64,000 bases of DNA, from the NCBI GenBank assembly GCA_964429035.1, contig CAYSAT010000002.1, positions 26,626 through 90,625 of the forward strand, given 5' to 3'. The position numbers and the translations under genes are program-made. A model generated the notes under the pieces. The model was not told where the DNA came from and ran no database searches. It worked only from the letters and a program-made list of their open reading frames with translations. Source of the stretch: an uncultured Candidatus Cloacimonadota bacterium. Lineage in GTDB: Bacteria; Cloacimonadota; Cloacimonadia; Cloacimonadales; Cloacimonadaceae. Of this stretch, positions 20,375 through 41,912 are shown in pieces. Each line of letters starts with the position of its first letter. The first letter of the stretch is position 1.

Positions 20375-21463
20375 TTACCCAGTCGCTCCGGCGTACTTGC
20401 CGAGCTTCTTCAACGCAAGGGACCTGAACGCCTTATGCAACAATGGAGCAGTGGCAATGGTAGAATACATCCGGTTTTTCCTGGAAATGCCCTGGCTTCC
20501 AGCCGCGTCGATGATCTTCTGCTTCGCCACTTTCAAAAGGGCGGTATCGCCGGTTAAAAAAGCCGAAGACATGATGCTGTTATTGAAGCTCACATGGAGT
20601 TGCCTTTCCGTCTCCGGAGCGCAGCCGTATTTATCTACGAAATACTGGTAAAGCTCATATTCCTTTTGCCGGAACCGCAGTTTCTTCGCCACATCAGAGC
20701 TTTGCGTCGCCGATTCCGTGATGATCCTGCGGACAGCCGTGGATTCAGGCAAATAATGGAATTTCGTGATCCGGGAGAGGCTGAGCCAGATGTAGGTATC
20801 CCAGCTGATGAAGCCCTTGGCTGGTTCCATGTCTACTTTATACTTGTCTTCCAGGCGGGTCAGGGCAGTGCAGTTAAAAACATGGTACTCTCTCTTCAGC
20901 AAACTATCATAGACAGGGTCTTCAGGCATCGGTAATCTTTGCGATCTGTGGTAGTTATGCACCATTTTGTTACTGGCTTCATACAGTATATCAGCGTCTG
21001 TATGCACCATGCCGCAGTCAGGATGCTCCTCCATGTAATCGACCTGTTTCTGCAGTTTGTAGGGATCCGTCCAGTAATCGTCCCCCTCGCAGGATGCGTA
21101 GTATCTCCCTCTAACAAGCGGGCCTAGGATTCTTTTAATAAACTGGAAGCCAAGTTTGCTATACTGGTTTTCCTTTTGGTAAATTGCCATAATAATATGG
21201 GGATGCTGTTGTTCATATTCTCTGATAATTTTGGCAGTTCCATCAGTCGAGGCATCATCGTGGATGAGAACCACAAATGGAAAATCCGTCACTTGCAACA
21301 AAAAACTCTCTATAGCTTGCGCAATATAGGTCTCATGATTGTAAGCAAGGCATACGATGCTGACCAAAGGATTGGCATTCTGAACTCGGTCCGTCAGTTC
21401 ATCTAGTACAGCCGGTTTTTTCTGCATTACGCTGCTGGCTCTAGCACCTTTATCGGGATTCAT
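20375..21463 (-). CDS. Glycosyltransferase family 2
   Basis: 362 aa; VSIVCLAYNHETYIAQAIESFLLQ...VLIHDDASTDGT. ATG 21463 has AGGAA upstream; ATG 21427 is an alternative. Confidence 0.85.
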   Translation of the reverse strand: MNPDKGARASSVMQKKPAVLDELTDRVQNANPLVSIVCLAYNHETYIAQAIESFLLQVTDFPFVVLIHDDASTDGTAKIIREYEQQHPHIIMAIYQKENQYSKLGFQFIKRILGPLVRGRYYASCEGDDYWTDPYKLQKQVDYMEEHPDCGMVHTDADILYEASNKMVHNYHRSQRLPMPEDPVYDSLLKREYHVFNCTALTRLEDKYKVDMEPAKGFISWDTYIWLSLSRITKFHYLPESTAVRRIITESATQSSDVAKKLRFRQKEYELYQYFVDKYGCAPETERQLHVSFNNSIMSSAFLTGDTALLKVAKQKIIDAAGSQGISRKNRMYSTIATAPLLHKAFRSLALKKLGKYAGATG

Positions 21464-22055
21464 TCACATTTCCTGGGTCATTGATTTTGACCACTTTTGC
21501 CGGTATCCCAACAACGGTTGCATAATCCGGAACGTCTTTGGTTACAACCGCTCCAGCGCCTATTCTTGAAAATTTGCCGATGTAATTGCATGATGAGAGA
21601 ATGATGGCCCTTAGGCCTATGTATGCCCCCTCTTCTATTACCAATCTGGTTGGGATGTTTTTATCCTCTCCCAAAGCATAGGCCTCAAGATCCCGGTGAT
21701 GGCTCTCAATAATCACACCGGAAGCAAGTCTAACGTCAGATTTGATGATCACTTCACCGCTATAGTCGATGAAAACGTCCCGGGTAAGCACCACATTATC
21801 TCCCAGTGACAGTTTTCCGATAAAACCATGAACTCTTTGTAAAATTACATTGTGCTCGATATAGGGCTTTTCCCCAAATCTAAAGTGCTTTTTATACGCC
21901 CTTAAGCGATATTTATACGTTTGCGGGAAACTGAACCATTTGGACCCGTAAAATGTGAAACACCACCGCCGTTTAATCTGTTCTTTTCTGTATTGTTTGT
22001 ATCCTTCCTTGGTCACTACTTGAGAGTCCGGAGTCGATACGCCTTGAACATTCAT
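21450..22055 (-). CDS. Hexapeptide-repeat acetyltransferase
   Basis: 201 aa; LbH repeats (LGDNVVLTRDVFIDYSGEVIIKSDVRLASGVII...IGLRAIILSSCNYIGKFSRIGAGAVVTKDVPDYATVVGIPAKVV). Confidence 0.75.
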   Translation of the reverse strand: MNVQGVSTPDSQVVTKEGYKQYRKEQIKRRWCFTFYGSKWFSFPQTYKYRLRAYKKHFRFGEKPYIEHNVILQRVHGFIGKLSLGDNVVLTRDVFIDYSGEVIIKSDVRLASGVIIESHHRDLEAYALGEDKNIPTRLVIEEGAYIGLRAIILSSCNYIGKFSRIGAGAVVTKDVPDYATVVGIPAKVVKINDPGNVNESR

Positions 22056-22155: not shown

Positions 22156-22797
22156 CTATACGGTTTTCGCTGGATTCCCAAAAACCGTCACGCCCGGTTT
22201 GACATCACGGATAACCACGCTGCCAGTGCCTACCGTTGCGCCGTCCCCGATCTTAATTCCCGGAATCAAAACAGCGCATGAGCCGATGGTAACGTTTTCG
22301 CCGATGATACAACCGCCTCCTACCTGGACCCGAGCAAATAGGGTTGTATAGTCTCCGATCACCGTATCATGCCCAACCTGTGTGCCACCGTTCACAAAGA
22401 CCAGAATCCCCAGTTTCACATTAGCAGACAAGACGCTATAGGCGGCCACGATGGATCCTTCACCGATCTGGTTGAATTTCCCGATCCTGGCGGTAGCGTT
22501 GACATAGGTCACAATGTTGGTTTTGGCCTTCAGATGCCTGTAGATCTTCAGTTTCCAGTCCGCCTGAGTTACCGCTATCAGGCAATGGTCATCTTTGGTA
22601 AGTGGGTAATCCTCCCAACTGCCAAGTATGTTGTAATCGCTTGGATATCCTTCCAGGGGGGATTTTCCGCTATTTGTATGCAGATAACCTTGAATATTCC
22701 AAAGCAACGCATCCGCAGGAGTAATTTCAATGGCAGATTCCAGTTCCCGACCAAAGTTCGCTGCACCCACGATGAAGAGTTTTTTCCTAATGGGCAT
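22156..22797 (-). CDS. NeuD/PglD/VioB-family amino-sugar N-acyltransferase
   Basis: 213 aa. N-terminal Rossmann-like KLFIVGAANFGRELE, then an LbH domain with VGHDTVIG (general-base His context) and a VFGNPAKTV end. Confidence 0.8.
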   Translation of the reverse strand: MPIRKKLFIVGAANFGRELESAIEITPADALLWNIQGYLHTNSGKSPLEGYPSDYNILGSWEDYPLTKDDHCLIAVTQADWKLKIYRHLKAKTNIVTYVNATARIGKFNQIGEGSIVAAYSVLSANVKLGILVFVNGGTQVGHDTVIGDYTTLFARVQVGGGCIIGENVTIGSCAVLIPGIKIGDGATVGTGSVVIRDVKPGVTVFGNPAKTV

Positions 22798-23551
22798 TCA
22801 AGCCACCGTCCACGATCAGATTGGTCCCAGTGATCCACCGCGAAGCATCGGCCATAAGGTACACGCAGGCATTTGCCACATCCTGAGGTTCGCCCAAACC
22901 CAAAAGAAATTCCCCGGTTCTTTGAGCCAACTGCTCGCTGTTCAATTGCGCTAAAACATCCCGGACTATATCGGTCATTATTAAACCTGGAGAAACACAA
23001 TTAACTCGCACTTTCTTCTTTGCCAGTTCGATCGCCATTGAGCGAACCGCAGAGATCAATGCCCCTTTGGTCGAGGCATAGCCTGTGACTCCCGCCCTGC
23101 CTTTGATCCCACTTATAGAGCTGATAAAGACGATACTGGAACCTTCCGGGGGAATGTGCCTGGGGTTGGTGACCAACTTAGCAATTTCCAAAGCAGGATA
23201 CAGGTTTACCTCAAACAGTTTCCTGTAATTGTCTATTTTCATTTGCCTGAAGGCCATCGTCAATTGGATACCTGCTGAATGTATAAAGCCGTGGATCTGA
23301 TTGAATCTATCCAATACCAGTACCAACGCGTCATGCAGATCCCCCTCTGAAGTGATATCAACCGGTACAATGAGATGGTTCCCCTCTTTCATTAAGCCCA
23401 AGGTCTCTTTCAGACGCATGCTATCTCTAGACATAAGCGTTACATTAGAACCCCTGTTACTGCACTCGATGGCACACTGCCGACCTATTCCGGAGGAAGC
23501 GCCGGTAATGATTACATTTTTTCCATCTAGTCTGAATTGATCGTGATTCAA
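22787..23551 (-). CDS. Short-chain dehydrogenase/reductase, FabG-like ketoreductase (SDR-3)
   Basis: 254 aa; VIITGASSGIGRQCAIE, YASTK (YxxxK), VNCVSPGLI. The TTG start lies 2 nt after the upstream stop. Confidence 0.85.
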   Translation of the reverse strand: MNHDQFRLDGKNVIITGASSGIGRQCAIECSNRGSNVTLMSRDSMRLKETLGLMKEGNHLIVPVDITSEGDLHDALVLVLDRFNQIHGFIHSAGIQLTMAFRQMKIDNYRKLFEVNLYPALEIAKLVTNPRHIPPEGSSIVFISSISGIKGRAGVTGYASTKGALISAVRSMAIELAKKKVRVNCVSPGLIMTDIVRDVLAQLNSEQLAQRTGEFLLGLGEPQDVANACVYLMADASRWITGTNLIVDGGLNAH

Positions 23552-23552
23552 T

Positions 23553-24614
23553 TCAGATCTCCACCAGATCGCTTATTTTAGGATTGTCCAAACGGATTAT
23601 GGCGCTGGCCCAAGAAAGTCCCACTCCAAAAGCGGATAAAAGTAAGGTGCTTTTCCGGTTTGGTAAGTTCCCCGCGAGTTCGGTGACCATGGTGAGCGGC
23701 AGCGAAACGGAGCTAAGGTTGCCAAAACGGTCCAGTGAAAGGGGTATCTTCTCCATCGGAATCTTCATCTTCCTGGAGATGTGCTTGATGATGAACAGAT
23801 TCGCCTGATGGAAAATGAAATGGTCAATATCCTCCACTCCGATATGTGTACGCTCCATTAATTCCCTGATATCTTTAGGCACTTCAGTTATCGTGAAATC
23901 AAAAACGGCCGGGCCGTCCATTCTGGCCTGTTCGTCACTGCGAATGCTGCCGTCCTCGCGTAGTAAAGGTTCCAGTGTCGCGGCAGAAGTGGGATTGCGA
24001 TAAGCACCACCGTCCTTGATTATCGCCTGGTATCCTGATCCGTCTGTGTTAAGGCTGAAGCCTGATTTTAGCTCGGCATCACCCAATCTTTCAACTAGTG
24101 CGGCCGTAGCCCCGTCCCCGAAAAGCAAGGAAGTGGCTCTATCTGTTTTGGATATGTAATTGACAATCACATGTCCATTCACCAGCAGAATCCTGTTCAT
24201 TGATTTGTTCTGCAACAGGCTATAGGCCATGTTCAAGGCGTAAACGAAGCCGCTGCAGCCCATGCTGATATCATAACACATAGTGGACTCAGGAAGCCTG
24301 AGTTTATCATGTAGAATGAATGAGGTTGGGGGCACCCTGTAATCTGGAGTGGCGTTACAGAATATCATAGCATCAATGCTTCTCGCATCGATGTCATTAT
24401 CGCTAAGCAATTTGGCGGTTGCGGAAAAAGCCATATCCGAAGCAACAATATCAGCACTGGACCAGCGCCTGAATTCAATGCCGGTCATCTTGATAACCTT
24501 GTCAGCTTCTTCATCCGAAAAGAAATCCGAGAAGGATTTGTTGTCGGCCACACGCTTGGGGGTGCATGCACTCATGGCTGTTATGGCCACGTTATCATAT
24601 TCGAAATATGCCAT
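23553..24614 (-). CDS. 3-oxoacyl-ACP synthase III (FabH-like), catalytic triad intact (KAS-4)
   Basis: 353 aa; YDISMGCSGF (Cys), FIFHQANLF (His), FGNLSSVSLP (Asn). GAGGAG before the ATG. Confidence 0.85.
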   Translation of the reverse strand: MAYFEYDNVAITAMSACTPKRVADNKSFSDFFSDEEADKVIKMTGIEFRRWSSADIVASDMAFSATAKLLSDNDIDARSIDAMIFCNATPDYRVPPTSFILHDKLRLPESTMCYDISMGCSGFVYALNMAYSLLQNKSMNRILLVNGHVIVNYISKTDRATSLLFGDGATAALVERLGDAELKSGFSLNTDGSGYQAIIKDGGAYRNPTSAATLEPLLREDGSIRSDEQARMDGPAVFDFTITEVPKDIRELMERTHIGVEDIDHFIFHQANLFIIKHISRKMKIPMEKIPLSLDRFGNLSSVSLPLTMVTELAGNLPNRKSTLLLSAFGVGLSWASAIIRLDNPKISDLVEI

Positions 24615-24623
24615 ATTAACTCC

Positions 24624-25394
24624 TCAGTGAGCTGTGTAGCCGCCGTCCACGATCATATTGGTACCGGTGACGAAGGATGCAGCGCGAGAAATCAGATAAA
24701 CGCATGCCAGAGCCACGTCAGTAGGTTTGCCCAGCCCTAAAACCTGATTTTTCAACATGTTTTCCATCGCGTTGGCGGGAACCTTGTCTTCATATCTGTC
24801 GTTCATCTCTGTATCGATGATACCTGGAGAGATAGCATTGACCCGGATCTTTTTCCTGCCCAGTTCCATGGCCATAGACCTGACTCCGGATATCAACGCC
24901 CCTTTGCTGCTGCAATAGGCCGTTTTCAAACCTTCGCCAACCACTGACATAACAGAAGAAATGAACACATAACTGGCTCCGGTTTCTGGATAAGATCCTT
25001 TTTTGGAAAGCAGGCGTACAAACTCAAAACCTGAAATGACATTAATCCGGAACTCTCTTTCGTATATCTCCGGTTTGGTTAAATGTATCGGAAACGTGCC
25101 GCCAATGCCCGCAGAATGGATGAAGCCTGCCATAGCGCCCAGTTTATCGACGGAGTCCCGCACGATGTTTTGGATATTAACATAATCCGAGATGTCGGCA
25201 GCGTAGCTCAGATGTGATCCCGGTTTGAGCAGGGACAGAGTCTGTTCCAGCCGATCCCTGTTTCTTCCGATCAAGACAACGTTGGCGCCATAGCGGCTGC
25301 ACTGGATGGCGCATTCCCTGCCGATTCCGGATGACGCTCCGGTGATCATCACGTTCAGACCTGCCAGGCCAAAGTTGCTTTTTTCGATGTCCAT
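24624..25394 (-). CDS. Short-chain dehydrogenase/reductase, FabG-like ketoreductase (SDR-2)
   Basis: 256 aa; VMITGASSGIGRECAIQ, YCSSK, VNAISPGII. Clear paralog of 22787..23551. Confidence 0.85.
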   Translation of the reverse strand: MDIEKSNFGLAGLNVMITGASSGIGRECAIQCSRYGANVVLIGRNRDRLEQTLSLLKPGSHLSYAADISDYVNIQNIVRDSVDKLGAMAGFIHSAGIGGTFPIHLTKPEIYEREFRINVISGFEFVRLLSKKGSYPETGASYVFISSVMSVVGEGLKTAYCSSKGALISGVRSMAMELGRKKIRVNAISPGIIDTEMNDRYEDKVPANAMENMLKNQVLGLGKPTDVALACVYLISRAASFVTGTNMIVDGGYTAH

Positions 25395-25397
25395 TAT

Positions 25398-26453
25398 TCA
25401 GATTTCCATCAGTTCGGAGCGATAAGTGTTTTCCAGGACTACCAGAGCCGAAGCCAGGGATAACCCGGCGCCGGCAGCGCATAGCATCACTACCTGCTTT
25501 TCCGTGCGGCCCATGCCAATATCTTTAAGCAAACTCAGAACAAAGGCTGCGGAGCCAGTGTCTCCAAAGCGTTCTACAGCATTAAGCGCTTTCTCGGCTG
25601 GGAATCCGGCCGAGTTCACGATGAGGTCGTTAGTTTTCTTGTCAAAGGCGTGAGGAATGATCCGGGAAACCTCATCCGCCTGCATCCCCGCCGCATCAAA
25701 TAACGACATGATTTGCGGTTGCACAGCTGTCTGCACATAGCGCTGCAGGGCCTCGATATCCACATGGCACTGCTCGTCCGAGCGGACGCTGCCGTCAGGA
25801 TAGTTCTTTTCCCGCAGGCTTTCCAAGCTGCTGGGGTTCCGGTAGCCACCCGCGGGGATCATGACGCTGGCGTTTTGGCCCGCGTTGGTGGAAAATAGAA
25901 AGTGGGACCTCTCCGCTGTTTCCGATTTTCCCAACAAGCAAGCGGTGCCGGCATCGCCAAACACCAGGCCGGTGGTCCGGTCTTTGAATGAATACGCCTT
26001 GGAGGCTGTTTCCCCGCAGAGCAGCAAGACATGCCTGACGTTTTTGCTCTGCAGGAGTGAAAAGCCCAGGCTCAGGCCCAGCAAAAAGCCCGGAGGGCCA
26101 AGATTGATATCGTAGGTGGCACAGCTTTTAGCAAAGCCCAGCTTGTGCTGCAGCACATTGCTGGTTCCGGGCGTCTTGTAATCCGGGGTTTGGGTGTTCA
26201 CGATCAAGACGTCGATCTGACTGCGCTCGATGCCCATTTCGCCCAGAAGCTTTTCCGCGGCAGCCTGGCAAAGGTCGGAAGCACAGATTTCCGGGGGCGC
26301 AAGGCGTCTCTGCAGCACCCCAGTCCGTTCAACGATCTCCCTCGCTTCATCCGGGCTGAAGAAACTGCTGTCCGTCAGATTGTTGAAAATCTTGCGGGGA
26401 ACAGCCCCGGCCACTCCCAGGATCGCGGTCCCGTCAAACTGTAGGTATGCCAT
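25398..26453 (-). CDS. KASIII-fold protein with degenerate active site (KAS-3; Cys->Pro, Asn->Asp)
   Basis: 351 aa, full-length paralog of 23553..24614 (GGYRNPSS, DGSVRSDEQ, C-terminal SELMEI). It reads YDINLGPPGF, IIPHAFDKK and FGDTGSAAF at the three catalytic positions. Confidence 0.8.
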   Translation of the reverse strand: MAYLQFDGTAILGVAGAVPRKIFNNLTDSSFFSPDEAREIVERTGVLQRRLAPPEICASDLCQAAAEKLLGEMGIERSQIDVLIVNTQTPDYKTPGTSNVLQHKLGFAKSCATYDINLGPPGFLLGLSLGFSLLQSKNVRHVLLLCGETASKAYSFKDRTTGLVFGDAGTACLLGKSETAERSHFLFSTNAGQNASVMIPAGGYRNPSSLESLREKNYPDGSVRSDEQCHVDIEALQRYVQTAVQPQIMSLFDAAGMQADEVSRIIPHAFDKKTNDLIVNSAGFPAEKALNAVERFGDTGSAAFVLSLLKDIGMGRTEKQVVMLCAAGAGLSLASALVVLENTYRSELMEI

Positions 26454-28112: not shown

Positions 28113-28868
28113 TTACAGGACCGTACAGCCGTCCACCCCGATGATCTGCCCTGAGATATAACTTGAGAGGTCGGAAGCCAGGAACACGCAGGCGTTGGCG
28201 ATTTCCTCCGGCTCTGCCAAACGGCCAAACCCGATGTTCGAGACCTTGTCCGAAAAATTGTCCTCCATAACTTGTTTCAGTCTCTCTGTAGCCACCATAC
28301 CCGGAGCTAGGGCATTTACCCTGATGTTGGCGGCAGCCAATTCCTTTGCGGCTGACTTCGTTATAGACACAACCGCCCCTTTGGAAGCGGAATATGCCAG
28401 CTGGCCACCAACGCCATTTACGCCCACGATACTAGACATGTTGATGATAGAGCCTGATTTGTTGCGCGCCATGACTCTGGATACCATTTGTATTAGATCA
28501 ATCATAGCAAACACATTTACATCGAACATGGCACGGAGGTTGTCTTTAGTGATCAAACTCATGAATTCGTAAGTGACAATACCCGCATTATTAACCAGTA
28601 CATCAATGCGGGATTGTTGCTTTCTGATACCGGCCAACGTTTCCTTGACTGCTACGGAGTCAGTGATATTAAAGTAACTGGGTATGATCGTGCCCGGCAA
28701 ATCAGCTGGCAATTCACCCAGCCAGGCATCGACTGAACCCGACACCACATCATTAGCGTAAACAACCGCCCCCTCCTCCGCAAAGCGCTGCGCAATGGCG
28801 CGGCCGATACCTCTTCCACATCCGGTCACCAGGGCGATCTTTCCTTCCAGAAGCCGTGTGCCGTTCAT
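28113..28868 (-). CDS. Short-chain dehydrogenase/reductase, FabG-like ketoreductase (SDR-1)
   Basis: 251 aa; IALVTGCGRGIGRAIA, NNAGI, YSASKGAV, VNALAPGMV. Confidence 0.85.
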   Translation of the reverse strand: MNGTRLLEGKIALVTGCGRGIGRAIAQRFAEEGAVVYANDVVSGSVDAWLGELPADLPGTIIPSYFNITDSVAVKETLAGIRKQQSRIDVLVNNAGIVTYEFMSLITKDNLRAMFDVNVFAMIDLIQMVSRVMARNKSGSIINMSSIVGVNGVGGQLAYSASKGAVVSITKSAAKELAAANIRVNALAPGMVATERLKQVMEDNFSDKVSNIGFGRLAEPEEIANACVFLASDLSSYISGQIIGVDGCTVL

Positions 28869-29219: not shown

Positions 29220-30296
29220 TCATAGAACTCCTTCTGCATAGAAGGCATCTGTTCGGATCGGTGGTAACATGGCTCCGGTGTTGATCACAAGATCGGCGCA
29301 AGCCCAGGACAGCCCGGCTCCGAAGCCGCACATCAGCAGCCTGATGTCCCGTTTTTCTTTGCCAGCATAGGTTTCCGACAAGGTCATGGGTATGGAATTG
29401 CTGCTGGTGTTGCCGTAAAGATCCAACGAGACCGGCATTTTTTCGGGCGGGATCTTGATCTTGCGGGCTATTTGCTTCAGGATGTAGATATTGGCCTGGT
29501 GCAAGGCGAAACAGTCATAATCATCTGATGTGGCGGCCAAATGATCCATGAATTCCTTGATCAGTTTGGGCACATCCGTGATAGAAAAACCGAACACCTC
29601 CATGCCCTTCATATTGATGTCGTAGTCTGAGCGCAGAATGCCGTCAGACCACAGCACTCTCTCATGTGATGCTCCCATGTTTCGGTATGCCCCCGACGGA
29701 GTTATTATGGCTTTGAACCGGTTTCCGTCGGTGCGGTGAGTAAAATGTGTGTGACTGTTCTGGTCAGATTTCTCGATGAGAGTAGCCGAACCGCAATCCC
29801 CGAACAGCATGATCATTGTGCGGTCGTGAGGAGAGATCGTTCTAACTGATGTGTCGCCGGTTATGAGAAGGGCAGTAGTGGCGTCGGAACTCGCCAGCAT
29901 CGAATAGACCAGATTCAGCCCGTAGATGAAGCCAGAGCAGGCCAGGTTGATATCGAAACACATGCAGTTGCGGCTGAGACCCAACCTTTTGTGTATGACA
30001 AAAGCGGTGGAGGGAGCCCGGTAATCAGGTTTTTGAGTCACGAAAACCAATAAGCCGATTTTCTCCGGATCAACTTCTTTTTGGGTGATCAGATGCCTGG
30101 CAGCCTCATAACCCAGATCGCCCGCTGTTTGTTCAGGGATGGCCCGGCATACGCTTTTAACTCCGGTCATTTCGGAAAACTTATCCACAGTCTCTGCCCC
30201 GAACGAATCCTTGTAGAAATCAACCGAAAGATCGGTGGTTGGCATGGCCACGGACATTCCAGAGACAGACAGCCCTTGAAAACTACTGATTAACAT
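29220..30296 (-). CDS. 3-oxoacyl-ACP synthase III (FabH-like), catalytic triad intact (KAS-2)
   Basis: 358 aa; FDINLACSGF (Cys), FALHQANIY (His), YGNTSSNSIP (Asn). Confidence 0.85.
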   Translation of the reverse strand: MLISSFQGLSVSGMSVAMPTTDLSVDFYKDSFGAETVDKFSEMTGVKSVCRAIPEQTAGDLGYEAARHLITQKEVDPEKIGLLVFVTQKPDYRAPSTAFVIHKRLGLSRNCMCFDINLACSGFIYGLNLVYSMLASSDATTALLITGDTSVRTISPHDRTMIMLFGDCGSATLIEKSDQNSHTHFTHRTDGNRFKAIITPSGAYRNMGASHERVLWSDGILRSDYDINMKGMEVFGFSITDVPKLIKEFMDHLAATSDDYDCFALHQANIYILKQIARKIKIPPEKMPVSLDLYGNTSSNSIPMTLSETYAGKEKRDIRLLMCGFGAGLSWACADLVINTGAMLPPIRTDAFYAEGVL

Positions 30297-30335
30297 ATAG
30301 ATCCACTCAACAGAAACCCCTGATCCTGTCTGAGT

Positions 30336-31364
30336 CTAAATATCATGGCTAACTGCCCCTTCCGTGTAGAAGTCATCAGTCTCAATCACGGGCAATACGG
30401 CATCGGCGCAGATCGTAAAATCGGCAAATCCCCAGGATAATCCCTCACCCAAACCACAAGCCAGCACCCGCGAGCATTTATTGCCTTTGACATGCCCGTA
30501 ATGATCAGATATTAGCAGAGGTATTGATCCTGCTCCTGCATACCCCATTTGCCTGCTGTTTTTCAATACTTTCTCTGCTGGAATGCGTAATCTGTGGGCT
30601 AGTTCCTGGACCAATCCTTCACTGAATTGAGTCAGGGCAAAACTATCAAAATCTGCAGTCTCTGAGCCACAACTTGCTACATACTCCTGAAATGCCTGCG
30701 GAATTTCATTGCTAAAGAAATCATGTAGCCCCTGAACGTCGACGCGGAGAGAATCTTCCTGATCCGACCCTGCATCTTCTGCTTTTATAAAGCCATTGGA
30801 CGGATGCTGCATTCTGAAAGCTCCAGATGGAAGGATCATTGAGTTGATAGCATTTCCATCTGTGCCAGTAAAAACATGAAGATCATCAGAAATCTGCGCA
30901 CTTTCTAGTAGAAGCGCTGAAGTACTGTCTCCCACTTTCCAATCTGGATACAATTCAGAGGGGGCCATCTGCTTGCTTAGGGTGTCGCCCGTGATCAATA
31001 ATCCATAACGGCAATTGATTCGACTTAGAAGTGATCCTACAATGGCAATACCATAAATGAAACCTGCACCACTAAGATTGATATCAAAAACAATACAATC
31101 TACTGGTAACCCTAACCGACTCTGCAGCACGCACGCGGTTGCAGGGCTGCGATAATCTGGGGTTTGTGAAACAAAAACCAATATTCCGATCTCAGCAACC
31201 GAAACTCCCAGTTCTTCAATCGCACATTGCGCGGCGCTAAAACCAAGGTCTCCTGCCGTCTGGAATTCTGAAACCCAGTATGCGCCTGTTTCACTTGATC
31301 TTTTTTTGGGGATTGCTGAAGCCAGGGCAGCAATTTTTACGTCTGAAATACTGAATTTATTCAT
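30336..31364 (-). CDS. KASIII-fold protein lacking all three catalytic residues (KAS-1)
   Basis: ORF 30336..31466 (TTG). The start is set at ATG 31364 (MNKFSISDVKIAALASAIPKK), which aligns with the N-termini of the other KASIII paralogs. It reads FDINLSGAGF, FALTQFSEG and MGYAGAGSIP at the Cys/His/Asn positions. Confidence 0.8.
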   Translation of the reverse strand: MNKFSISDVKIAALASAIPKKRSSETGAYWVSEFQTAGDLGFSAAQCAIEELGVSVAEIGILVFVSQTPDYRSPATACVLQSRLGLPVDCIVFDINLSGAGFIYGIAIVGSLLSRINCRYGLLITGDTLSKQMAPSELYPDWKVGDSTSALLLESAQISDDLHVFTGTDGNAINSMILPSGAFRMQHPSNGFIKAEDAGSDQEDSLRVDVQGLHDFFSNEIPQAFQEYVASCGSETADFDSFALTQFSEGLVQELAHRLRIPAEKVLKNSRQMGYAGAGSIPLLISDHYGHVKGNKCSRVLACGLGEGLSWGFADFTICADAVLPVIETDDFYTEGAVSHDI

Positions 31365-33196: not shown

Positions 33197-34066
33197 TCAA
33201 TCCAATTTCACAATCAGATTCAACAGGTATTCCCCATATCCGCTTTTTCTGATCGGTTCTGCAATGCGGCAAAGTTGATCCTTGTCTATATAGCCTTTAC
33301 GGTATGCTATCTCTTCTATACAGCCAATTTTAAATCCCTGCCGTTGTTCAATGATCTCCACGAATTGGGAAGCCTGCAGAAGTGATTCAAAGGTACCAGT
33401 ATCCAGCCAGGCAGTGCCGCGGCCAAAGACCATAACTTTAAGTTTGCCTGCTTCCAGGTAAACCCTGTTCACATCCGTAATTTCATACTCGCCACGGGAC
33501 GAAGGTTTGATCTCGCGGGCGATCCGGAGTACGCTGTTATCATAGAAATACAAACCAGGTACGGCAAAATTGGATTTGGGGTTCGCCGGTTTTTCTTCGA
33601 GTGATATCGCATTAAAACTCTTATCAAACTCCACCACTCCGAAAGATTTGGGGTCACGGACTGGATAGGCTGTTATTATCGCACCCTCTGGATCTATGCA
33701 GTTGCTCAATCGAGACTGGATATCGGCACCATAAAAAATATTGTCTCCCAAGATCAGGCAGACATTATCTGAGCCCACAAAATCTGCTCCGATCACCAGC
33801 GCTTGTGCCAGGCCGTTTGGTACGCTCTGGATTGCGTATACGAATCTCATACCCAGGTCAGAGCCGTCCTTAAGTAATTTCTTGAATGATGCTTGATCTT
33901 CCGGCGTGGTGATGATCAGCACATCTTTGATACCGGTAAGCATCAATATTGAAAGAGGATAGTAGATCATGGGCTTGTCATAAACCGGCATCAGCTGTTT
34001 ACTGACCGCAATTGTCAGCGGATGAAGACGGCTTCCGGCTCCTCCGGCTAAAATGATACCTTTCAT
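33197..34066 (-). CDS. rfbA: Glucose-1-phosphate thymidylyltransferase
   Basis: [55 protein letters not shown] is the classic RmlA N-terminus. ATG 34066 is preceded by GGAG; the TTG at 34078 in the ORF track is less likely. Confidence 0.9.
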
Positions 34067-34112
34067 TGTGCGCTCCAATTCGTTTTATTGATTTTTGATA
34101 GGCTCATCTAAA

Positions 34113-35198
34113 CTATTTAGTAACATTTAAAAGGATTGCGCAGATTCTGTCAATATCATTGTGGGTAAGGGTATAATAGAGAGGCAAGCAAAGAATCCGC
34201 CTGGAGATATCTTCGGACACTGGGCAGGGCATATATGGTGTTATCTTGATAAAAGTATTGACTGAAGGATAGAAATACCGTCTGGCATAGATCTCGTGTT
34301 GGGCCAAGGCTTCAAGCACATTCAAGGTTATTTTTTCGGTAGGAAACATCACTGGAAAATAGGAATAATTACTGGTCCCGTGTACAATTCTTTGGAATTT
34401 TAGGGAAGAGGAACGGCTCAGCAAAGCATTATATAGGTGATGTTTTTCTTTGCGGTCATTCAGAATACTTTGGAAAGAATCTAGATTAAGTATTCCCAGG
34501 GCAGCATGAACCTCGGTCATTTTGCCGTTGAATCCGTCTTCAACTACCTCCTTGGCAGAGTCAAATCCAAAGAACCTGATTCTATTCAGTTTTTCATATA
34601 CATCCGGGTCATTGGTTACACAGGCACCACCCTCAGCAGTGTTGATGATTTTGGTTGCGTGAAAGCTTGTTGCAGAAATATCTCCATAACTAAGTAAGCT
34701 TTCTCCGTTGACAACTGATCCAACTGCATGGGCGGCATCATAAATCACTTTGAGATTATACTCACGAGCGATCATGTCTATTGTCTCGATATCACAGGGG
34801 TTGCCAAATACATGTACGGGCATTATGGCGACCGTTTTTTCTGTTATGAGTTCCTCTATTTTTCGGACATCAAGGTTCAGGGTGTTTGGATCAATATCAC
34901 AGAAGACTGGAGTGCAAGACTCCCATTTTATTGCGCTGATTGAGGCTACCCACGTAAAAGGTGTCGTGATGATCTCGCCTCTTAAACCCATCGCTTTGAT
35001 GGCCATCTGCAGTGCTACAGTCCCGTTAGTAACTGCTATGATATGTTTTAAACCTAGCACAGAGCATAAAGACCGCTCAAATCTCTGGACCACTGGGCCG
35101 TTATGGGTTAATATTCCGGTTCCCCATATGTCAGCAAGGATTTTATCCAGCCTACTAATATCCGGCAAATATGGTTTGATCACTGGTATCTTAGCCAT
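34113..35198 (-). CDS. DegT/DnrJ/EryC1/StrS-family sugar aminotransferase
   Basis: Start at ATG 35198 (MAKIPVIKPYLP), an 8-nt overlap with the upstream stop. The PLP-Lys context is TSFHATKIINTAEGG. Confidence 0.85.
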   Translation of the reverse strand: MAKIPVIKPYLPDISRLDKILADIWGTGILTHNGPVVQRFERSLCSVLGLKHIIAVTNGTVALQMAIKAMGLRGEIITTPFTWVASISAIKWESCTPVFCDIDPNTLNLDVRKIEELITEKTVAIMPVHVFGNPCDIETIDMIAREYNLKVIYDAAHAVGSVVNGESLLSYGDISATSFHATKIINTAEGGACVTNDPDVYEKLNRIRFFGFDSAKEVVEDGFNGKMTEVHAALGILNLDSFQSILNDRKEKHHLYNALLSRSSSLKFQRIVHGTSNYSYFPVMFPTEKITLNVLEALAQHEIYARRYFYPSVNTFIKITPYMPCPVSEDISRRILCLPLYYTLTHNDIDRICAILLNVTK

Positions 35199-36156
35199 TT
35201 GCAACTCTTAAGAATTCTTCGATCAGCTCAGCTTGTCTAATATTCTGAGCGTACTCAGGAGGCAATAAGCCCATGACAGTGTCATGAAAATATAACAGCA
35301 TATTTCTGAAATGATTGTCGGGAGGAAGAGATATCTCCTTAATCCCATAATCGGTCTCCAGTACGATTGTCGGAACATAACCGGGTGGTGCGGTGAAAAT
35401 GCGATTTGTAAAGATCTTACCTTTACTACCCCATAATTCCAACGAACACTGGTAATGGCAATCAAAACCAAATGCTATTTCCGAAAACAAATCACCTGAT
35501 TTCTGTTTAATAAAACCTCCACCCCAAAGGTCTACACCCGTAATCTCATCCCAATGGAGGCTTGCAGATCCCACACAGATATCTTCCCCCATCAAGATCT
35601 GTGAAATCTTGATCGGATATGCCCCTACATCGAGGAGAGCGCCGCCACCTAATTCTTTTTTATACCTGATATTATTGGTATCCTTGAAGGGTGGGAAGCC
35701 AAACGAACTCCTAATACACCGTAAGTCTCCTATTATCCCTGACTTCACCATATCCAGTATCAACATTAACTGGCTATGGTATTGAAATTGAAAATTCTCC
35801 AACAACACCAGATTCCTGGCCTGGGCTGAATTGTTTAGCCTTCTAACTGCGGATGCCGTGGTTGCCAAAGATTTCTCTACAATGACATGTAATCCCCGCT
35901 CGAGAGCCCGTTCGACCCACTCTTCATGTAGAGAATTCGGCAAAGGAATATATACTGCGTCCAGATCAGAGACATCAAACAGGGCGTCGTAGGGATACAT
36001 TGGATTCGTTTGGAAACGTTCAGCCATATTTCGCGCCTTACTATATGACCTGCTTGCGATTCCTACTAATGTAAACTCCTCTCCTAAGGCAACTAAATTG
36101 GGGAGCATATATCTCTCAGCTATATTGGCACATCCAATTACACCAATGTTGACCAT
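35191..36156 (-). CDS. Gfo/Idh/MocA-family NAD(P)-dependent oxidoreductase (candidate NDP-hexose C-3 ketoreductase)
   Basis: 321 aa; MVNIGVIGCANIAERYMLPNL Rossmann N-terminus and EKSLATT. It lies directly downstream of a 2,3-dehydratase, as in deoxysugar pathways. Confidence 0.75.
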   Translation of the reverse strand: MVNIGVIGCANIAERYMLPNLVALGEEFTLVGIASRSYSKARNMAERFQTNPMYPYDALFDVSDLDAVYIPLPNSLHEEWVERALERGLHVIVEKSLATTASAVRRLNNSAQARNLVLLENFQFQYHSQLMLILDMVKSGIIGDLRCIRSSFGFPPFKDTNNIRYKKELGGGALLDVGAYPIKISQILMGEDICVGSASLHWDEITGVDLWGGGFIKQKSGDLFSEIAFGFDCHYQCSLELWGSKGKIFTNRIFTAPPGYVPTIVLETDYGIKEISLPPDNHFRNMLLYFHDTVMGLLPPEYAQNIRQAELIEEFLRVANG

Positions 36157-36160
36157 ATCC

Positions 36161-37510
36161 CTAATCCCCCGAGTGAAATGGCAATACCGATATCAGACTG
36201 CGCGCTTGAACATTAAAGTGATTACCGTGAATTAACAGCTCATGTATTTGACTCAGAGACATCCACAAATAAAAATCCGGTACTTCCTCTGGAAAATCTG
36301 ATGTAGCCTCAACAATCATATATCTGTTTTGATCTCTGAAGAAACGTCCGCCTTCCTCTGACAGTAGTGCATCATAGACAGGCTTGTTTTTCTTTCCGTG
36401 AAGTATCTCTTCTAAGAAAGGGTAGTCCGCCACATTGCACTTTGAATAGTCTTCATCCAGGCACTGAACTGTTGGGGCAAACTCGACTGTATCCAAGTTC
36501 CCGCACTCGACTAACATTTGTACCAGGAAATGTATTAGACCAGAAATTCTTTTGTAAACAAAACAACATAAACCCTGGCATACTGGCTGTAACATAGGCT
36601 GGCACCAAGATACAACCTCCCGGTTTCCAATTTCAACTCGAGTACCTATGATACTGAAGTATTTGGATTCACAATAATGAATAACATTATCATCACACTG
36701 CCATTTTTCAAGATGATGTAGAGGTATGATTTTTCTTTCAAGATCAATCCGGCATTTGATATTCGTTAATGATGAGACTATGCTTTCTATCGACTCTCTC
36801 CCTATATTTGAAGACAGAGATTCTAGTAAGAACTCGGAGTATTGCTTTAATGATGTTGCAGGATTTACTACCTTAGAATATAAGCTCGGGCTAAGTCCGG
36901 ACAAAACTGATCTGGTATCCATGTTGACAATATTGTCATATTTCATAAGTGATTTAAGATCTCTAAGACTTATCCAGGCAAAATTATCCCTCAATGGTAT
37001 TTCGGTCTCTCTATCAACCATAACGATCATATTACGGTTGCGCTTAGCTAAAAACCTCGAGCCCTGCTCGGACTGCAGGGAGTCATATAATATGGAATGC
37101 TTTCCTGCATTGATAAAATACTCGATATAGGTCGGTTTACGCCCCTTGTGAATCTGAGTATAATTACTCTTTGTTGCCTGAACAGTTGGAGAAAGTTGGA
37201 CATAATTTACATTACCAGGCTCAACTTTTGCCTGCATCAGCAAATAGAGGTCACCATGTTGTTTCATTGCTAAGATGCCTAGTACTCCATATTCGTTTTG
37301 CTGGATAATAGGCTGTTCCCATCTTGTGTTTCCATTGACTGAGGCACTAATACCTTCAATAGAATAGAAACCTCCAGAACAGTGGTATATTCTCCCTCTG
37401 GATCTGTCGTAGATCCAGTCAGCCATTTCTGAGAGTTGAACTTGTTCCACTGAAATGGTTACCAATTTATTCTGCTGATCAACCCACTCAAGGACGTTGT
37501 TTACATCCAT
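36161..37510 (-). CDS. NDP-hexose 2,3-dehydratase (EvaA/TylX3/OleV family)
   Basis: 449 aa with two internally repeated Nudix-like halves (WEQPIIQQNEYGVLGILAMKQHGDLYLLMQAKVEPGN...SPTVQATKSNY and WCQPMLQPVCQGLCCFVYKRISGLIHFLVQMLVECGN...APTVQC). This is the hallmark architecture of the hexose 2,3-dehydratase family. Confidence 0.8.
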   Translation of the reverse strand: MDVNNVLEWVDQQNKLVTISVEQVQLSEMADWIYDRSRGRIYHCSGGFYSIEGISASVNGNTRWEQPIIQQNEYGVLGILAMKQHGDLYLLMQAKVEPGNVNYVQLSPTVQATKSNYTQIHKGRKPTYIEYFINAGKHSILYDSLQSEQGSRFLAKRNRNMIVMVDRETEIPLRDNFAWISLRDLKSLMKYDNIVNMDTRSVLSGLSPSLYSKVVNPATSLKQYSEFLLESLSSNIGRESIESIVSSLTNIKCRIDLERKIIPLHHLEKWQCDDNVIHYCESKYFSIIGTRVEIGNREVVSWCQPMLQPVCQGLCCFVYKRISGLIHFLVQMLVECGNLDTVEFAPTVQCLDEDYSKCNVADYPFLEEILHGKKNKPVYDALLSEEGGRFFRDQNRYMIVEATSDFPEEVPDFYLWMSLSQIHELLIHGNHFNVQARSLISVLPFHSGD

Positions 37511-37622
37511 CTTGTCTCAATTCTAAGTCTCATTTGGGTTATTGATTGATTACTCAACAACTAGAATTCTGACACTACTCATTGGTAGCGTTGCATTTTT
37601 TTACTAAAGTATTTATCATTAT

Positions 37623-39095
37623 CTATTGGATCAATTTTTTCTGCAAGATATGCCGATGATGCACAATCTGCTCTCTAATGATGGCTTTGAGCTCGAGATA
37701 TTCAATTCTTTTCAATACTTGGCCAGTCAGTATTATAAAAGCGAAGGCGGTAGTTATCTTGAGCACAAAAGATATCACGATACTATGTGGCGCAAGAAGG
37801 CCTGCTAACCATACTACAATAACCATTGGTATAGACAGTATTGCTGTGGGCATTATATCGAGTAGCTGTTCACTTGTAGGGTAGTTGACCAATTTGGCTG
37901 ACCACATTGAATTTAGCAGATAAGCAATAAATGAGTTAAATACCATTCCCCACAGCATTACAATCATGCCGAATTTAATACCGACTACTATTATTGGAAT
38001 AACAAGTATTTTCTTAATGATTTCCAGTTTGAGATAGAGGTCAGGCCGGTTTCTAGCATTCAACATATTCAGGTTCAAAGAATGGAGCGGATAAAGCGTT
38101 GCAGAAATACACATGATCCGTAAGTATGGAATCGCGGGTATCCACTTATCACCAACTAAAAGTTGAATGATTTCCTTCGATGTCGACATCATTAGCAACA
38201 TAAGGGTGCAGGTGATATAAAATGATAATTTAATCAACTTTTTATAGCCTGCCTTGAGTTTTACGTCATCACTGGCAATTGAGGCTAGGACAGGATAAGT
38301 CACTTGCTGAGTTGTCATTTCCAGATTTCGGGAAGGTAGGTTTTTGAACTGGTCAGCACGGGTAAAAAAACCTAGTTCTTGGGCAGAAAAGTATTTCCCG
38401 ATGATAAGTTTGTATATGTTTTTATAGACCGCGCCTATAAGATTGGCAGTTAGTATTTTCAGCCCAAAACCAAACAACTCTTTTAGTGAGTTTTTGCTGA
38501 ATTGAAATCTAGGATGCCAGCTAGACCATATGTGAAGCAATAAGACTCTTAGTACATTTTGTGTAATTGTCTTGATCGCCAAGCTCCAATATCCCAGTCC
38601 CATAAAAGCGAGGGTAATACCGACAACTCCTGAGCTAGTTGAAGAAATCAAAGATATCTTAGTTTGCAATTTAAAGTCAATATTCTTTGTCAGAATAGCT
38701 GTTTCAATCAACCCAAAGGAATTGACTATCAGATTTACAGCCATTATTTTAATTAAAAGATTGAGATCAGGCATCTTATAAAAGGACGATATAAAACCTG
38801 ATGCAAGGTATATTATCGTAAACATCAGCAAACCCATTGCAAGGTTTGTAAAAAACATTGTGTTATAGTCTTCGTCTGTGCAATTCTGTTTTCGGATCAG
38901 AGCCGATGTTAATCCCATTTCCACTAAAGAATCAGATATAGCAATGAAAACCGTAATCATGCCTATGGTCCCATATTCTTGGGGACTCAATAGTCGTGCA
39001 AGAATTACACCTACAATAAACTGCAGTAATTGATTAGCAGTTTTATCTGCAAAACTCCATTTCAAGCCACCAATTGTTTTATTCTTCAAACCCAT
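37623..39095 (-). CDS. wzx: Wzx-type oligosaccharide flippase (polysaccharide biosynthesis protein, MOP superfamily)
   Basis: 490 aa, ~12-14 TM segments. The N-terminus KNKTIGGLKWSFADKTANQLLQFIVGVILARLLSPQEYG is typical of Wzx/PST proteins. Confidence 0.8.
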   Translation of the reverse strand: MGLKNKTIGGLKWSFADKTANQLLQFIVGVILARLLSPQEYGTIGMITVFIAISDSLVEMGLTSALIRKQNCTDEDYNTMFFTNLAMGLLMFTIIYLASGFISSFYKMPDLNLLIKIMAVNLIVNSFGLIETAILTKNIDFKLQTKISLISSTSSGVVGITLAFMGLGYWSLAIKTITQNVLRVLLLHIWSSWHPRFQFSKNSLKELFGFGLKILTANLIGAVYKNIYKLIIGKYFSAQELGFFTRADQFKNLPSRNLEMTTQQVTYPVLASIASDDVKLKAGYKKLIKLSFYITCTLMLLMMSTSKEIIQLLVGDKWIPAIPYLRIMCISATLYPLHSLNLNMLNARNRPDLYLKLEIIKKILVIPIIVVGIKFGMIVMLWGMVFNSFIAYLLNSMWSAKLVNYPTSEQLLDIMPTAILSIPMVIVVWLAGLLAPHSIVISFVLKITTAFAFIILTGQVLKRIEYLELKAIIREQIVHHRHILQKKLIQ

Positions 39096-39146: not shown

Positions 39147-40142
39147 TTATGGCCGCATAACACCATGATCACTTGTCATAATAGAAGATTTCAGTATCTC
39201 ACCAACAATTCTACTGTAAACTTGAGCACCCTGGTGATTCAAATGACTAAGATCTTTATACAGATTACAATCATTCAATTCTGGATATGAGGCAGGGATG
39301 ATGATGTGTAAGGGTACTCCCTTTTTTTGTAATGCGGCTATAAGCTCTTCAGATATGAAAGTTGTCGAAGCAATGGCAGTATTGGCTGGACATCTTGGTG
39401 AAACGAAAGCAATTAAAAAAATGCCATTAACCCTGCACTCATCAATAAATAAGTTAAAGTATTGTTTCGCCAATAAGTCCCGTCTTCGGTCGGTCCTAGT
39501 GATTACTGTATTAGTGATTAAATTTTCAGAAAGATACTTATCAAAATCGTTAGCATTATATTTCCTTAAGTCTACGGTATCATGTAAGGGTATATACCCT
39601 CGGTCTGTGAGGTCTCGTTCACTAGGAGATTTAAGCAACTCAGCAATAATTGCCGCTACCTTCTGATTATAGGGAAGCATACGAAATGTATTTGTTAAAG
39701 AATTTGTAAAATCAATATCCACCAATAATCTGTTGATATGCGGGGTTTTTCTATATGGTCGCAATAAGTTTACTTTAGTATAGTGTTTATCGAAAAAATA
39801 GTCTATGTCCGATATGTCCCATAAAATAACTTTCGGCTTGTTCCGCTTGAGTATCAGTTGCAGTATTGCATACTTGTAAAAAATACTGGTTGCATCCTCT
39901 CCGGCATTATAAGTTGGCATTCCAACTTCAGCCTCGATAATGTCCGGTACATAGCCATGTTGGGCTGCTGAAGCTCCCATTATATAAACATCATAGTTGA
40001 TTTCTGCCAGATGGTTTATCAGAGCCCCTGAGGTCCCGGTATCTAAATCAAAATACCAATTCTCCAGTACTCTGCCAATCAATTGATCGAATAGCACCAA
40101 TATACTGAGAAAAATCATCACTTTTGTCAGTAGTTTCTTCAT
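39147..40142 (-). CDS. Membrane-anchored SGNH/DltD-like acyl-transfer protein (module B)
   Basis: ORF 39147..40175. The start is set at ATG 40142 (MKKLLTKVMIFLSILVLF), 5 nt after the MBOAT stop. VYIMGASAAQHG (Ser block) and KDLSHLNHQGAQ (DxxH block) are present. Same architecture as 14656..15603. Confidence 0.5.
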   Translation of the reverse strand: MKKLLTKVMIFLSILVLFDQLIGRVLENWYFDLDTGTSGALINHLAEINYDVYIMGASAAQHGYVPDIIEAEVGMPTYNAGEDATSIFYKYAILQLILKRNKPKVILWDISDIDYFFDKHYTKVNLLRPYRKTPHINRLLVDIDFTNSLTNTFRMLPYNQKVAAIIAELLKSPSERDLTDRGYIPLHDTVDLRKYNANDFDKYLSENLITNTVITRTDRRRDLLAKQYFNLFIDECRVNGIFLIAFVSPRCPANTAIASTTFISEELIAALQKKGVPLHIIIPASYPELNDCNLYKDLSHLNHQGAQVYSRIVGEILKSSIMTSDHGVMRP

Positions 40143-40146
40143 ATCT

Positions 40147-41538: not shown

Positions 41539-41658
41539 CTGGCTAAATGGGTCTCCTCGATATAATCTGCTCTTTCATAGGCTACAGGTGTTGAGTGATA
41601 CCCCCTCATTACAATACTGTTAAGTCGCCCGATTCTGTACAATCCTCGCGCAAATACC

Positions 41659-41904
41659 TTAAGGCGTGATTTTTGACAGTATGCAGATATAAAGGTCTGC
41701 CATAGTGTTAAAGTTTATCACTTCCACGAAGCTGAATTTCACATTAAAATGCTTCTCGATCTCGGTGATTATAACCATATGTGAAAGAGAATCCCAACCC
41801 TTAATGTCTCCGGCAGTAGTATCATCTGTTAAATCAAAATCGCTGTGTTTCAAGACATCTTGCACAATTGCTGACACATTTTGTTTTACTTGTTCTTTAG
41901 TCAT
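41659..41904 (-). CDS. Acyl/aminoacyl carrier protein (module B)
   Basis: ORF 41659..41937. Start at ATG 41904 (MTKEQVKQNV), preceded by AGGAGATAGT and lying downstream of the GNAT stop at 41913. DIKGWDSLSHMVIITEIE is the Ser context. Confidence 0.75.
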   Translation of the reverse strand: MTKEQVKQNVSAIVQDVLKHSDFDLTDDTTAGDIKGWDSLSHMVIITEIEKHFNVKFSFVEVINFNTMADLYICILSKITP

Positions 41905-41912
41905 ACTATCTC

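Follow-up and report, generated by a model that had tools for sequence, protein, structure and literature searches.

A triad-less FabH-like paralog and its intact neighbor in a conserved five-gene module: a probable heterodimer encoded in a Cloacimonadota glycan island

A degenerate and an intact KASIII gene side by side

We describe here a pair of adjacent genes for ketoacyl-ACP synthase III (KASIII; ACP, acyl carrier protein), the family typified by FabH, which lies in a 64,000-nucleotide stretch of contig CAYSAT010000002.1 (assembly GCA_964429035.1, positions 26,626 to 90,625) from an uncultured Candidatus Cloacimonadota bacterium. This whole stretch is hereinafter called the window, and positions are counted from its first letter (Table 1). 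The downstream gene of the pair, hereinafter the live copy, carries the motifs FDINLACSGF, FALHQANIY and YGNTSSNSIP with the catalytic Cys, His and Asn, whereas the upstream gene, hereinafter the dead copy, reads FDINLSGAGF, FALTQFSEG and MGYAGAGSIP at the same places; 39 nucleotides (nt) separate the two. Alignment with Escherichia coli FabH, for which we used a reference sequence 100% identical to 1hn9_A, equates Gly99, Thr245 and Tyr275 of the dead copy with Cys112, His244 and Asn274, and identifies the triad of the live copy as Cys120/His266/Asn296. The alignment with the solved KASIII structure 4efi likewise sets the Gly, Thr and Tyr of the dead copy against the catalytic Cys, His and Asn. 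These results bear out the original prediction, which had been made from the letters of the DNA and had read the dead copy as having undergone Cys to Gly, His to Thr and Asn to Tyr replacements, with all three residues kept in its neighbor: the alignments return the same three replacements, both open reading frames (ORFs) are present on the minus strand at the coordinates given, every motif that it quoted for the pair is as described, including PSGAYRNM/PSGAFRMQ and both C-termini, and the dead copy is indeed upstream in the direction of transcription. Its further claim that the two proteins align over their whole length holds for about 90% of both, at 39% identity (BLASTP, E 4e-69; residues 56-358 of the live and 35-338 of the dead copy), and the local alignment leaves out about 34 residues at the N-terminus of the dead copy.

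Both window copies exceed the Pfam cutoffs for the two KASIII domains (PF08545 and PF08541), the dead copy with 30.8 bits against a cutoff of 24 for PF08545 and 50.6 bits against 26.6 for PF08541. Both are under the curated cutoffs of the NCBIfam FabH models, where the dead copy attains 122 bits against a cutoff of 249, about half the score of its live neighbor. The dead copy was also modeled with AlphaFold2 from 31 sequences of its lineage; the model has a predicted local distance difference test score (pLDDT) of 85.7 and a predicted template-modeling score (pTM) of 0.88, and it matches KASIII structures over its entire length, with 4efi as the best (TM 0.83). The dead copy thus belongs to the KASIII fold, with both domains in a full-length two-lobe arrangement, and lacks the KASIII catalytic triad, which the live copy possesses. 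The sole long disordered stretch in the model is an acidic insertion (residues 186-202), which appears to correspond roughly to the substrate-tunnel loop of FabH, with an approximate placement. In light of the sequence and the modeled structure, the dead copy is predicted to be a folded KASIII paralog without condensing activity.

The N-termini of homologs agree with the start of the dead copy at 31364, and its ORF stays open back to a TTG at 31466. The exact protein, with either start, has no self-match in a collection of 15 billion proteins, in which the live copy, a second KASIII and GatD of the same 107,843-bp contig are present; the gene of the dead copy seems not to have been called there.

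Genomic context across phyla

In the window, the dead and live copies head a run of genes that continues with a carrier protein of about 80 aa, a short-chain dehydrogenase/reductase (SDR) of the ketoreductase type and an adenylating ligase, the full order extending from 31364 down to 26723. In a scripted survey of all 22 loci found to have a Cys-less copy, the window included, the gene that directly follows this copy on its strand encodes a Cys/His/Asn KASIII in 22 of 22, and the gap between the two genes ranges from -11 to 82 nt. Nineteen of these loci have the complete module, and the remaining three end at the edge of a contig; the complete ones have a carrier of 79-88 aa (in all but one call), an SDR of about 250 aa and a ligase of about 461-474 aa. 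The genomic contexts of nine Cys-less homologs, which include the deepest branches of the clade, each place the gene immediately upstream of a same-strand KASIII. A scan of species-representative genomes recovered loci from several Flavobacterium, other Bacteroidota, Muribaculaceae, Psychroflexus and Kiritimatiellae, with the same gene order across Bacteroidota, Kiritimatiellae and Cloacimonadota. Cultivable carriers include Flavobacterium buctense JCM 30750 (L010) and F. cheonhonense JCM 17064 (L014). The dead/live pairing is conserved well beyond chance; it is real and ancient, and because the pair is followed by the carrier, the SDR and the ligase in all 19 loci that do not end at a contig edge, the conserved unit is a fixed five-gene module rather than a mere gene pair. 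The original prediction mentioned neither this module nor its glycan setting.

The closest relatives of the window module are from Bacteroidota and from an unassigned metagenome contig of the Joint Genome Institute (L001). Homologs of the carrier are 79-86 aa, and in all 19 complete modules the protein occupies the same place; given this size range, the true start of the window carrier may be an internal Met. The ligase ORF remains open back to a TTG at 28228, a start that would overlap the SDR, and the ligases of other modules are mostly 461-474 aa. In the Flavobacterium loci the module adjoins a second carrier protein, an SDR, a PglD-like N-acyltransferase and amino-sugar genes of the PglF/DegT type.

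Divergence and selection in the two lineages

The two genes of the pair have diverged to very different degrees. The live copy of the window is 60-74% identical to the downstream partners at other loci, all of which have Cys/His/Asn; across loci, the live partners are 60-79% and the dead copies 35-56% identical among themselves, and a dead copy shows 29-38% identity to any live copy, its own neighbor included. A homology search with the dead copy returned a top identity of no more than 47%, and 33 of the 120 best matches lack Cys/His/Asn, in many different combinations. In a neighbor-joining tree a single clade with long branches unites all the upstream copies, and the downstream partners, Cys/His/Asn throughout, cluster in a compact clade of their own. 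The pairwise distances in the two lineages are strongly correlated (r 0.91, Mantel p ~2e-4), the dead lineage evolving 1.7 times faster than the live one. In one close locus pair (dS 0.27), the ratio of nonsynonymous to synonymous substitution rates (dN/dS) comes to 0.18 in the dead gene and 0.08 in its live neighbor. Constraint on the dead gene is relaxed, yet purifying selection clearly maintains it, and 29 positions are invariant among 31 diverse sequences of its lineage.

These data bear on the idea that the dead copy is a decaying, functionless duplicate kept by linkage to its neighbor. Its faster evolution is as expected of decay, as is the absence of the exact protein from a large collection that holds its neighbors from the same contig. 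Against this, the ORF is intact in 22 loci over several phyla, the invariant positions and the dN/dS speak of constraint, the predicted fold is confident, and the lineage comprises at least 67 clusters at 50% identity. We regard decay as highly improbable, and it is already contradicted by the conservation data.

The catalytic positions of the lineage are themselves in flux. Among 41 dead-lineage sequences there are 22 different triad combinations, with Gly, Ser, Ala, Asn or Cys, and never Gln, at the Cys position; partial losses occur within the clade (Ser/His/Asn, Gly/His/Asn and Cys/Asn/Tyr), and one member is still Cys/His/Asn. These varied and partial states indicate that the loss of the catalytic residues took place bit by bit and more than once. 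When 1.84 billion representative sequences were searched with a profile, 13,390 matched at E <= 1e-3, and the best 145 full-length representatives contain the at least 67 clusters without Cys/His/Asn; 63 of these 67 have a Glu at the position of E. coli residue 306 and 49 a Ser at that of residue 87, two sites to which we return below. Two members of the dead lineage that lie upstream of a second KASIII, namely that of a Bdellovibrionales metagenome-assembled genome (locus L009, 95-1180, identical with representative P0004) and representative P0122, combine Cys/His/Asn with Ser87 and Glu306, and may represent a transitional state.

Two long representatives were also inspected as potential Rosetta-stone fusions of the dead lineage and rejected, as neither belongs to it. 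In P0227 (671 aa), a KASIII and a malonyl transacylase of the FabD type share one chain. P0250 (557 aa) joins an intact KASIII to a degenerate second KASIII half, with DINLGADG in place of the Cys motif, from another clade, and may be an independent instance of a live-plus-dead KASIII in one chain.

Sites retained and lost

To localize the constraint, we compared the 41 dead-lineage sequences with 14 live partners over 288 comparable sites. The equivalents of C112, H244, N274, R151, G209, N210, F213, A246, N247, R249 and K256 are scrambled in the dead lineage. The same eleven sites are 86-100% conserved in the live partners, where all but one are invariant, the equivalent of R249 being Tyr in 12 and Phe in two. 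The latter eight, from R151 to K256, are what we take to be the contact positions of FabH for coenzyme A (CoA) and ACP; all of them are conserved in the live copy of the window, and their scrambling in the dead lineage makes the delivery of substrates to its own pocket look lost.

The degeneration is uneven. The N- and C-terminal halves have mean conservation scores of 0.60 and 0.43 in the dead lineage versus 0.76 and 0.77 in the live partners, and the N-terminal half holds the most conserved motifs of the dead lineage. Going by thiolase-fold dimers in general, we take this half to provide most of the contacts between subunits. Conservation is highest in the segment TPDYRSPAT (0.96), which corresponds to E. 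coli residues 82-90; within it, Ser at position 87 is present in 40 of the 41 sequences (Ser73, in the PDYRSP loop of the window copy), and the live partners have V, S, L, I or A. Constraint in the dead lineage exceeds that in the live partners at only 41 of the 288 sites, and of all 288 it is position 87 that shows the largest excess (0.17 vs 1.92 bits). The second hallmark is a Glu at position 306, in a G-E-G motif, again in 40 of 41 sequences, where the live partners carry Ala; in the window this is Glu307 (encoded at approximately 30444-30446), which replaces the oxyanion-hole glycine. The dead copy of the window thus has both hallmarks. They are also seen in lineage members that are still Cys/His/Asn or Ser/His/Asn, and therefore Ser87 and Glu306 predate the loss of the triad and define the lineage. 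Glu307 could be a plug of the pocket, the partner of a salt bridge to an invariant Arg of the other subunit, or a new catalytic group.

Both sites have known roles in FabH: the adjacent monomer contributes Phe87', which is packed against the substrate, and the residue at 306 touches the acyl group and also tunes primer specificity (PMC12625853). In priming ketosynthase III (KSIII) enzymes, too, a cap residue is supplied by the other monomer (PMC12664062). Were the two window proteins to form a heterodimer, residue 87 of the dead subunit would line the sole working pocket and that of the live subunit would face the abandoned one, which would account for the observed pattern of constraint; two separate homodimers would produce its reverse. 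The asymmetry at position 87, read by analogy with FabH, hence favors the heterodimer.

The same evidence weighs on the proposal that the dead protein is non-catalytic and functional, yet is no dimer partner of the live copy, acting instead as a homodimeric scaffold, a carrier-protein chaperone that serves the ligase and carrier pair, or a regulator of the module. The synteny, the purifying selection and the full fold fit any conserved role in the module equally well. However, such a function leaves the over-constraint at position 87 unexplained, with homodimers predicting the opposite, and likewise the preferential conservation of the N-terminal half in the dead lineage, which the live partners do not display. 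We consider it unlikely.

A different proposal is that the upstream lineage has been neo-functionalized and uses other residues, such as Glu307 and the Tyr71/Arg72/Ser73 loop, either alone or in a dimer; the candidate activities would be decarboxylation of malonyl groups as a priming step, transfer of acyl groups between the two carrier proteins, or hydrolysis of thioesters. The near-universal Glu306, which is seen in 40 of the 41 lineage sequences and most of the representatives without Cys/His/Asn and predates the loss of the triad, is in keeping with this, and relatives of KSIII with altered triads can be true acyltransferases, as exemplified by DpsC with Ser-His-Asp (PMC12664062). Conversely, just two of the 41 sequences, for all their triad combinations, retain a nucleophile along with His and Asn/Asp; none has Ser-His-Asp, and the window copy has Gly/Thr/Tyr, with no CLF-like Gln at the Cys position (CLF, chain length factor). 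The CoA- and ACP-contact positions are scrambled, and the sole well-conserved Cys, at E. coli position 103, is shared with the live partners and with E. coli FabH. We accordingly hold neo-functionalization to be quite improbable. Three specific candidates were rejected: the Cys at position 103 as an alternative nucleophile, on account of its conservation in the live partners and presence in E. coli FabH; a DpsC-like acyltransferase, with the triad positions hypervariable and never Ser-His-Asp; and a CLF-like decarboxylase, with the same hypervariability and a Cys position that is never Gln.

Interpretation of the gene pair

The explanation that we find best supported, and probably correct, by analogy with known FabH-type dimers, is a heterodimer in which the dead subunit donates part of the pocket. 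The dead and live KAS proteins would form a FabH-like dimer with a single working active site. The PDYRSP loop of the dead subunit, with Ser73 in the place of E. coli Phe87, would cross the interface and line the acyl pocket of the live subunit, thereby setting the primer or chain that the latter accepts. The dead subunit's own pocket would have been abandoned, with its contact residues scrambled and Glu307 on the oxyanion-hole glycine.

Several points weigh against this explanation. The retention of Cys/His/Asn in L009/P0004 and P0122 means that some orthologs of the dead copy may be active, and the near-invariance of Glu307 could signify a new activity rather than a dead pocket. Neighboring genes co-diverge even when there is no binding between their products, the sample of live partners is small (14 sequences), and the dN/dS values come from a single unsaturated pair. 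The interface and pocket contacts are transferred from the geometry of E. coli FabH. Finally, the window showed no malonyl transferase of the FabD type.

The surrounding glycan island

Approximately the first 44 kb of the window form a glycan island of lower guanine-plus-cytosine content (35-54%) than the flanking core genes at 44000-64000 (54-59%), consistent with horizontal acquisition. The island encodes RmlA, an NDP-hexose 2,3-dehydratase (NDP, nucleoside diphosphate), two DegT aminotransferases, a GFO-type oxidoreductase and a Wzx flippase, together with GT2 and GT4 glycosyltransferases, several hexapeptide acyltransferases, two MBOAT proteins and three small carrier proteins (Table 1). 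The two hexapeptide-repeat proteins listed in Table 1 are candidates for the transfer of an acyl group onto an amino sugar; at other loci, a PglD-like hexapeptide acyltransferase adjoins the module.

Table 1. Genes of the KASIII module and other features of the window
Coordinates	Strand	Feature	Remarks
30336-31364	minus	Dead copy: predicted non-catalytic KASIII (FabH-like) paralog	342 aa from ATG
29220-30296	minus	Live copy: intact KASIII, presumed catalytic subunit	358 aa
28881-29147	minus	Small carrier protein	88-aa ORF; WDS(I) phosphopantetheine-type serine motif; weak ACP match (E 9e-4)
28113-28868	minus	SDR, FabG-like 3-ketoacyl reductase	251 aa
26723-28108	minus	Adenylate-forming (AMP-binding; AMP, adenosine monophosphate) ligase	461 aa from Met at 28108
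25398-26453	minus	KASIII with Pro/His/Asp	Second elongation/reduction set (22787-26453)
24624-25394	minus	SDR	Second set
23553-24614	minus	Intact KASIII	Second set
22787-23551	minus	SDR	Second set
22156-22797	minus	Hexapeptide-repeat acyltransferase	
21450-22055	minus	Hexapeptide-repeat acyltransferase	
33197-39095	minus	RmlA, DegT aminotransferase, GFO/IDH/MocA oxidoreductase, NDP-hexose 2,3-dehydratase, Wzx-type flippase	
42701-44233	minus	AMP-binding ligase	Dlt-like set 1 (39147-44233)
41913-42695	minus	GNAT	Dlt-like set 1
41659-41937	minus	Carrier protein	Dlt-like set 1; 92 aa
40147-41538	minus	MBOAT	Dlt-like set 1
17272-18519	minus	Alpha-oxoamine-synthase-like aminotransferase	Dlt-like set 2 (13542-18519)
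16994-17224	minus	Carrier protein	Dlt-like set 2; 76 aa
15590-16945	minus	MBOAT	Dlt-like set 2
14656-15603	minus	Weak DUF1574 match	Dlt-like set 2
13542-14639	minus	FAD (flavin adenine dinucleotide) oxidoreductase	Dlt-like set 2
44281-45660	minus	Archaeal-type GatD	
46292-48361	minus	Archaeal-type GatE	

Downstream of the module lies a second elongation/reduction set, in which a KASIII with Pro/His/Asp and an intact KASIII are separated by an SDR within the same operon. The Pro/His/Asp combination is unique among 120 homologs, 117 of which have Cys/His/Asn, and in the counterparts from Bacteroidales loci (L022-L027) both members of the orthologous pairs are intact. Unlike the ancient dead lineage, this gene appears to have been inactivated recently and in this lineage alone. 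Two more sets of genes with a carrier protein resemble acylation systems of the Dlt type (Table 1); the first also includes a 342-aa protein without a family match. Beyond these, archaeal-type GatD and GatE reach or exceed their NCBIfam cutoffs. The contig that bears them also carries bacterial markers of the type IX secretion system and a bacterial-type Asd; homologs of GatD named Cloacimonadota are 79-87% identical, and GatD is routinely annotated in the phylum. An archaeal host, which these two genes might suggest, was rejected on these grounds: the homologs of GatD place the host in Cloacimonadota, for which GatD and GatE are normal.

On the basis of this context and of the analogies drawn below, the product of the module is likely a short hydroxyacyl chain on an amino sugar. 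In the proposed pathway, the ligase would load a carboxylate onto the carrier protein, the KAS heterodimer would extend the loaded acid by a malonyl unit, and the SDR would reduce the 3-keto group, with the second KAS/SDR set adding further rounds. A hexapeptide acyltransferase would then move the short hydroxyacyl chain to an amino-deoxysugar of an exported glycan. There is no candidate dehydratase or enoyl reductase among the cluster genes scanned, and therefore the hydroxyls would be kept.

A more far-reaching version of the heterodimer, which we put forward tentatively and think somewhat unlikely, is that the dead protein, far from being a passive scaffold, is the second half of a composite active site, with the invariant Tyr-Arg-Ser loop and possibly Glu307 serving the live subunit in what amounts to a class of miniature polyketide-like synthases. 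The loop and Glu307 would provide the live subunit with specificity or catalytic groups, enabling the KASIII to take a carrier-tethered or hydroxylated primer that an ordinary FabH cannot use. The module would then constitute an undescribed, phylum-spanning class of synthases for the decoration of surface glycans, in which the division into donor and catalyst arose independently of PqsBC and KS/CLF.

Implications

Dead partners control the identity of the product in both KS/CLF (the ketosynthase and chain length factor of polyketide synthesis) and PqsBC, and our evidence favors a second FabH-type pair of a dead and a live subunit, which would have evolved independently. Its dead lineage is far more widespread than PqsBC, being found in Bacteroidota, Cloacimonadota, Kiritimatiellae and others. 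If confirmed, the heterodimer would account for the way in which bacteria make unusual hydroxyacyl amide decorations of O-antigens and capsules, decorations that serve Flavobacterium psychrophilum and Vibrio cholerae O100 as serotype and vaccine epitopes. Moreover, it would make Ser87 and Glu306 annotation markers that separate non-catalytic from catalytic proteins among those labeled 'ketoacyl-ACP synthase III', and would offer a natural experiment in the conversion of a symmetric homodimer into donor and catalyst subunits. L009/P0004 and P0122 would be useful for asking whether Glu306 alone abolishes activity.

Comparison with known systems

In a literature search of partial coverage, the module was not found, and the FabH-like heterodimers were from PqsBC-related work only; the dead/live KASIII module is apparently undescribed so far. 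As for the proposed product, the O-antigen of F. psychrophilum contains Qui2NAc4N with an amide-linked 3,5-dihydroxyhexanoyl group, which has been attributed to the KAS, ACP, ketoreductase (KR) and PglD-like genes of its locus (PMC6519341), and V. cholerae O100 carries the same group (PMC12024518). The wfpC-wfpG cassette of F. psychrophilum resembles the window in that its glycan locus combines KASIII genes with those for an ACP, a ketoreductase and an acyltransferase like PglD; its pathway proposal is itself bioinformatic (PMC6519341). It differs in its order (KAS, ACP, KAS, KR, PglD), and in having no adenylating ligase and no dead KAS noted, and is a simpler cassette, separate from the five-gene module.

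The original prediction had likened the pair to KS/CLF of type II polyketide synthases (PKS) and to PqsBC. The shared logic of a dead and a live subunit stands, but, as set out below, the window pair belongs to neither system, and both are therefore analogies only. KS/CLF (KSalpha/KSbeta) likewise combines a catalytic subunit with an adjacent Cys-less paralog that shapes the pocket or the chain length. However, it is of the KASI/II type, and both window proteins match KASIII Pfam models only. CLF carries a conserved Gln at the position of the active-site Cys, whereas this position is Gly in the window copy and hypervariable across the dead lineage. DpsC-like priming KSIII enzymes are similar in having a KSIII fold without the Cys nucleophile, and many dead-lineage members share an Asp at the Asn position; their Ser-His-Asp (PMC12664062) is, by contrast, found in 0 of the 41 dead-lineage sequences, the window copy included with its Gly/Thr/Tyr. 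E. coli FabH and BioZ share the fold, and the two sites that mark the dead lineage, as Ser and Glu, are precisely their specificity positions 87' and 306, with BioZ having Ala at 306 as in the live partner. They are symmetric homodimers with two active sites, whereas here the donor and catalyst roles appear to be split between two genes.

In PqsBC, a FabH-like heterodimer from Pseudomonas aeruginosa (PDB 5dwz/6esz), PqsB lacks all three triad residues and lends structural support to PqsC, the complex mimics the FabH homodimer, and an enlarged active-site cavity reaches into PqsB; PqsC has a Cys-His dyad without the Asn, and the C-terminal subdomain of PqsB is shortened (PMC4807248). The window pair is like it in consisting of adjacent FabH-fold genes of which one lacks the triad, with a more degenerate C-terminal half in the dead subunit of both. 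PqsB is not found among the 49 PDB sequence matches of the dead copy, nor among its 50 best structural ones. The differences are also clear: the dead copy keeps the whole fold over its 342 aa, with the close match to 4efi, as opposed to the truncated subdomain of PqsB; the live partner keeps Cys120/His266/Asn296 and not just a dyad; PqsBC makes alkylquinolone signals, and the window genes lie in a glycan locus; and the PqsBC dimer is proven, while that of the window is inferred. To judge from the sequences and the modeled fold, the window pair is independent of PqsBC in origin, and PqsBC is its closest analogue.

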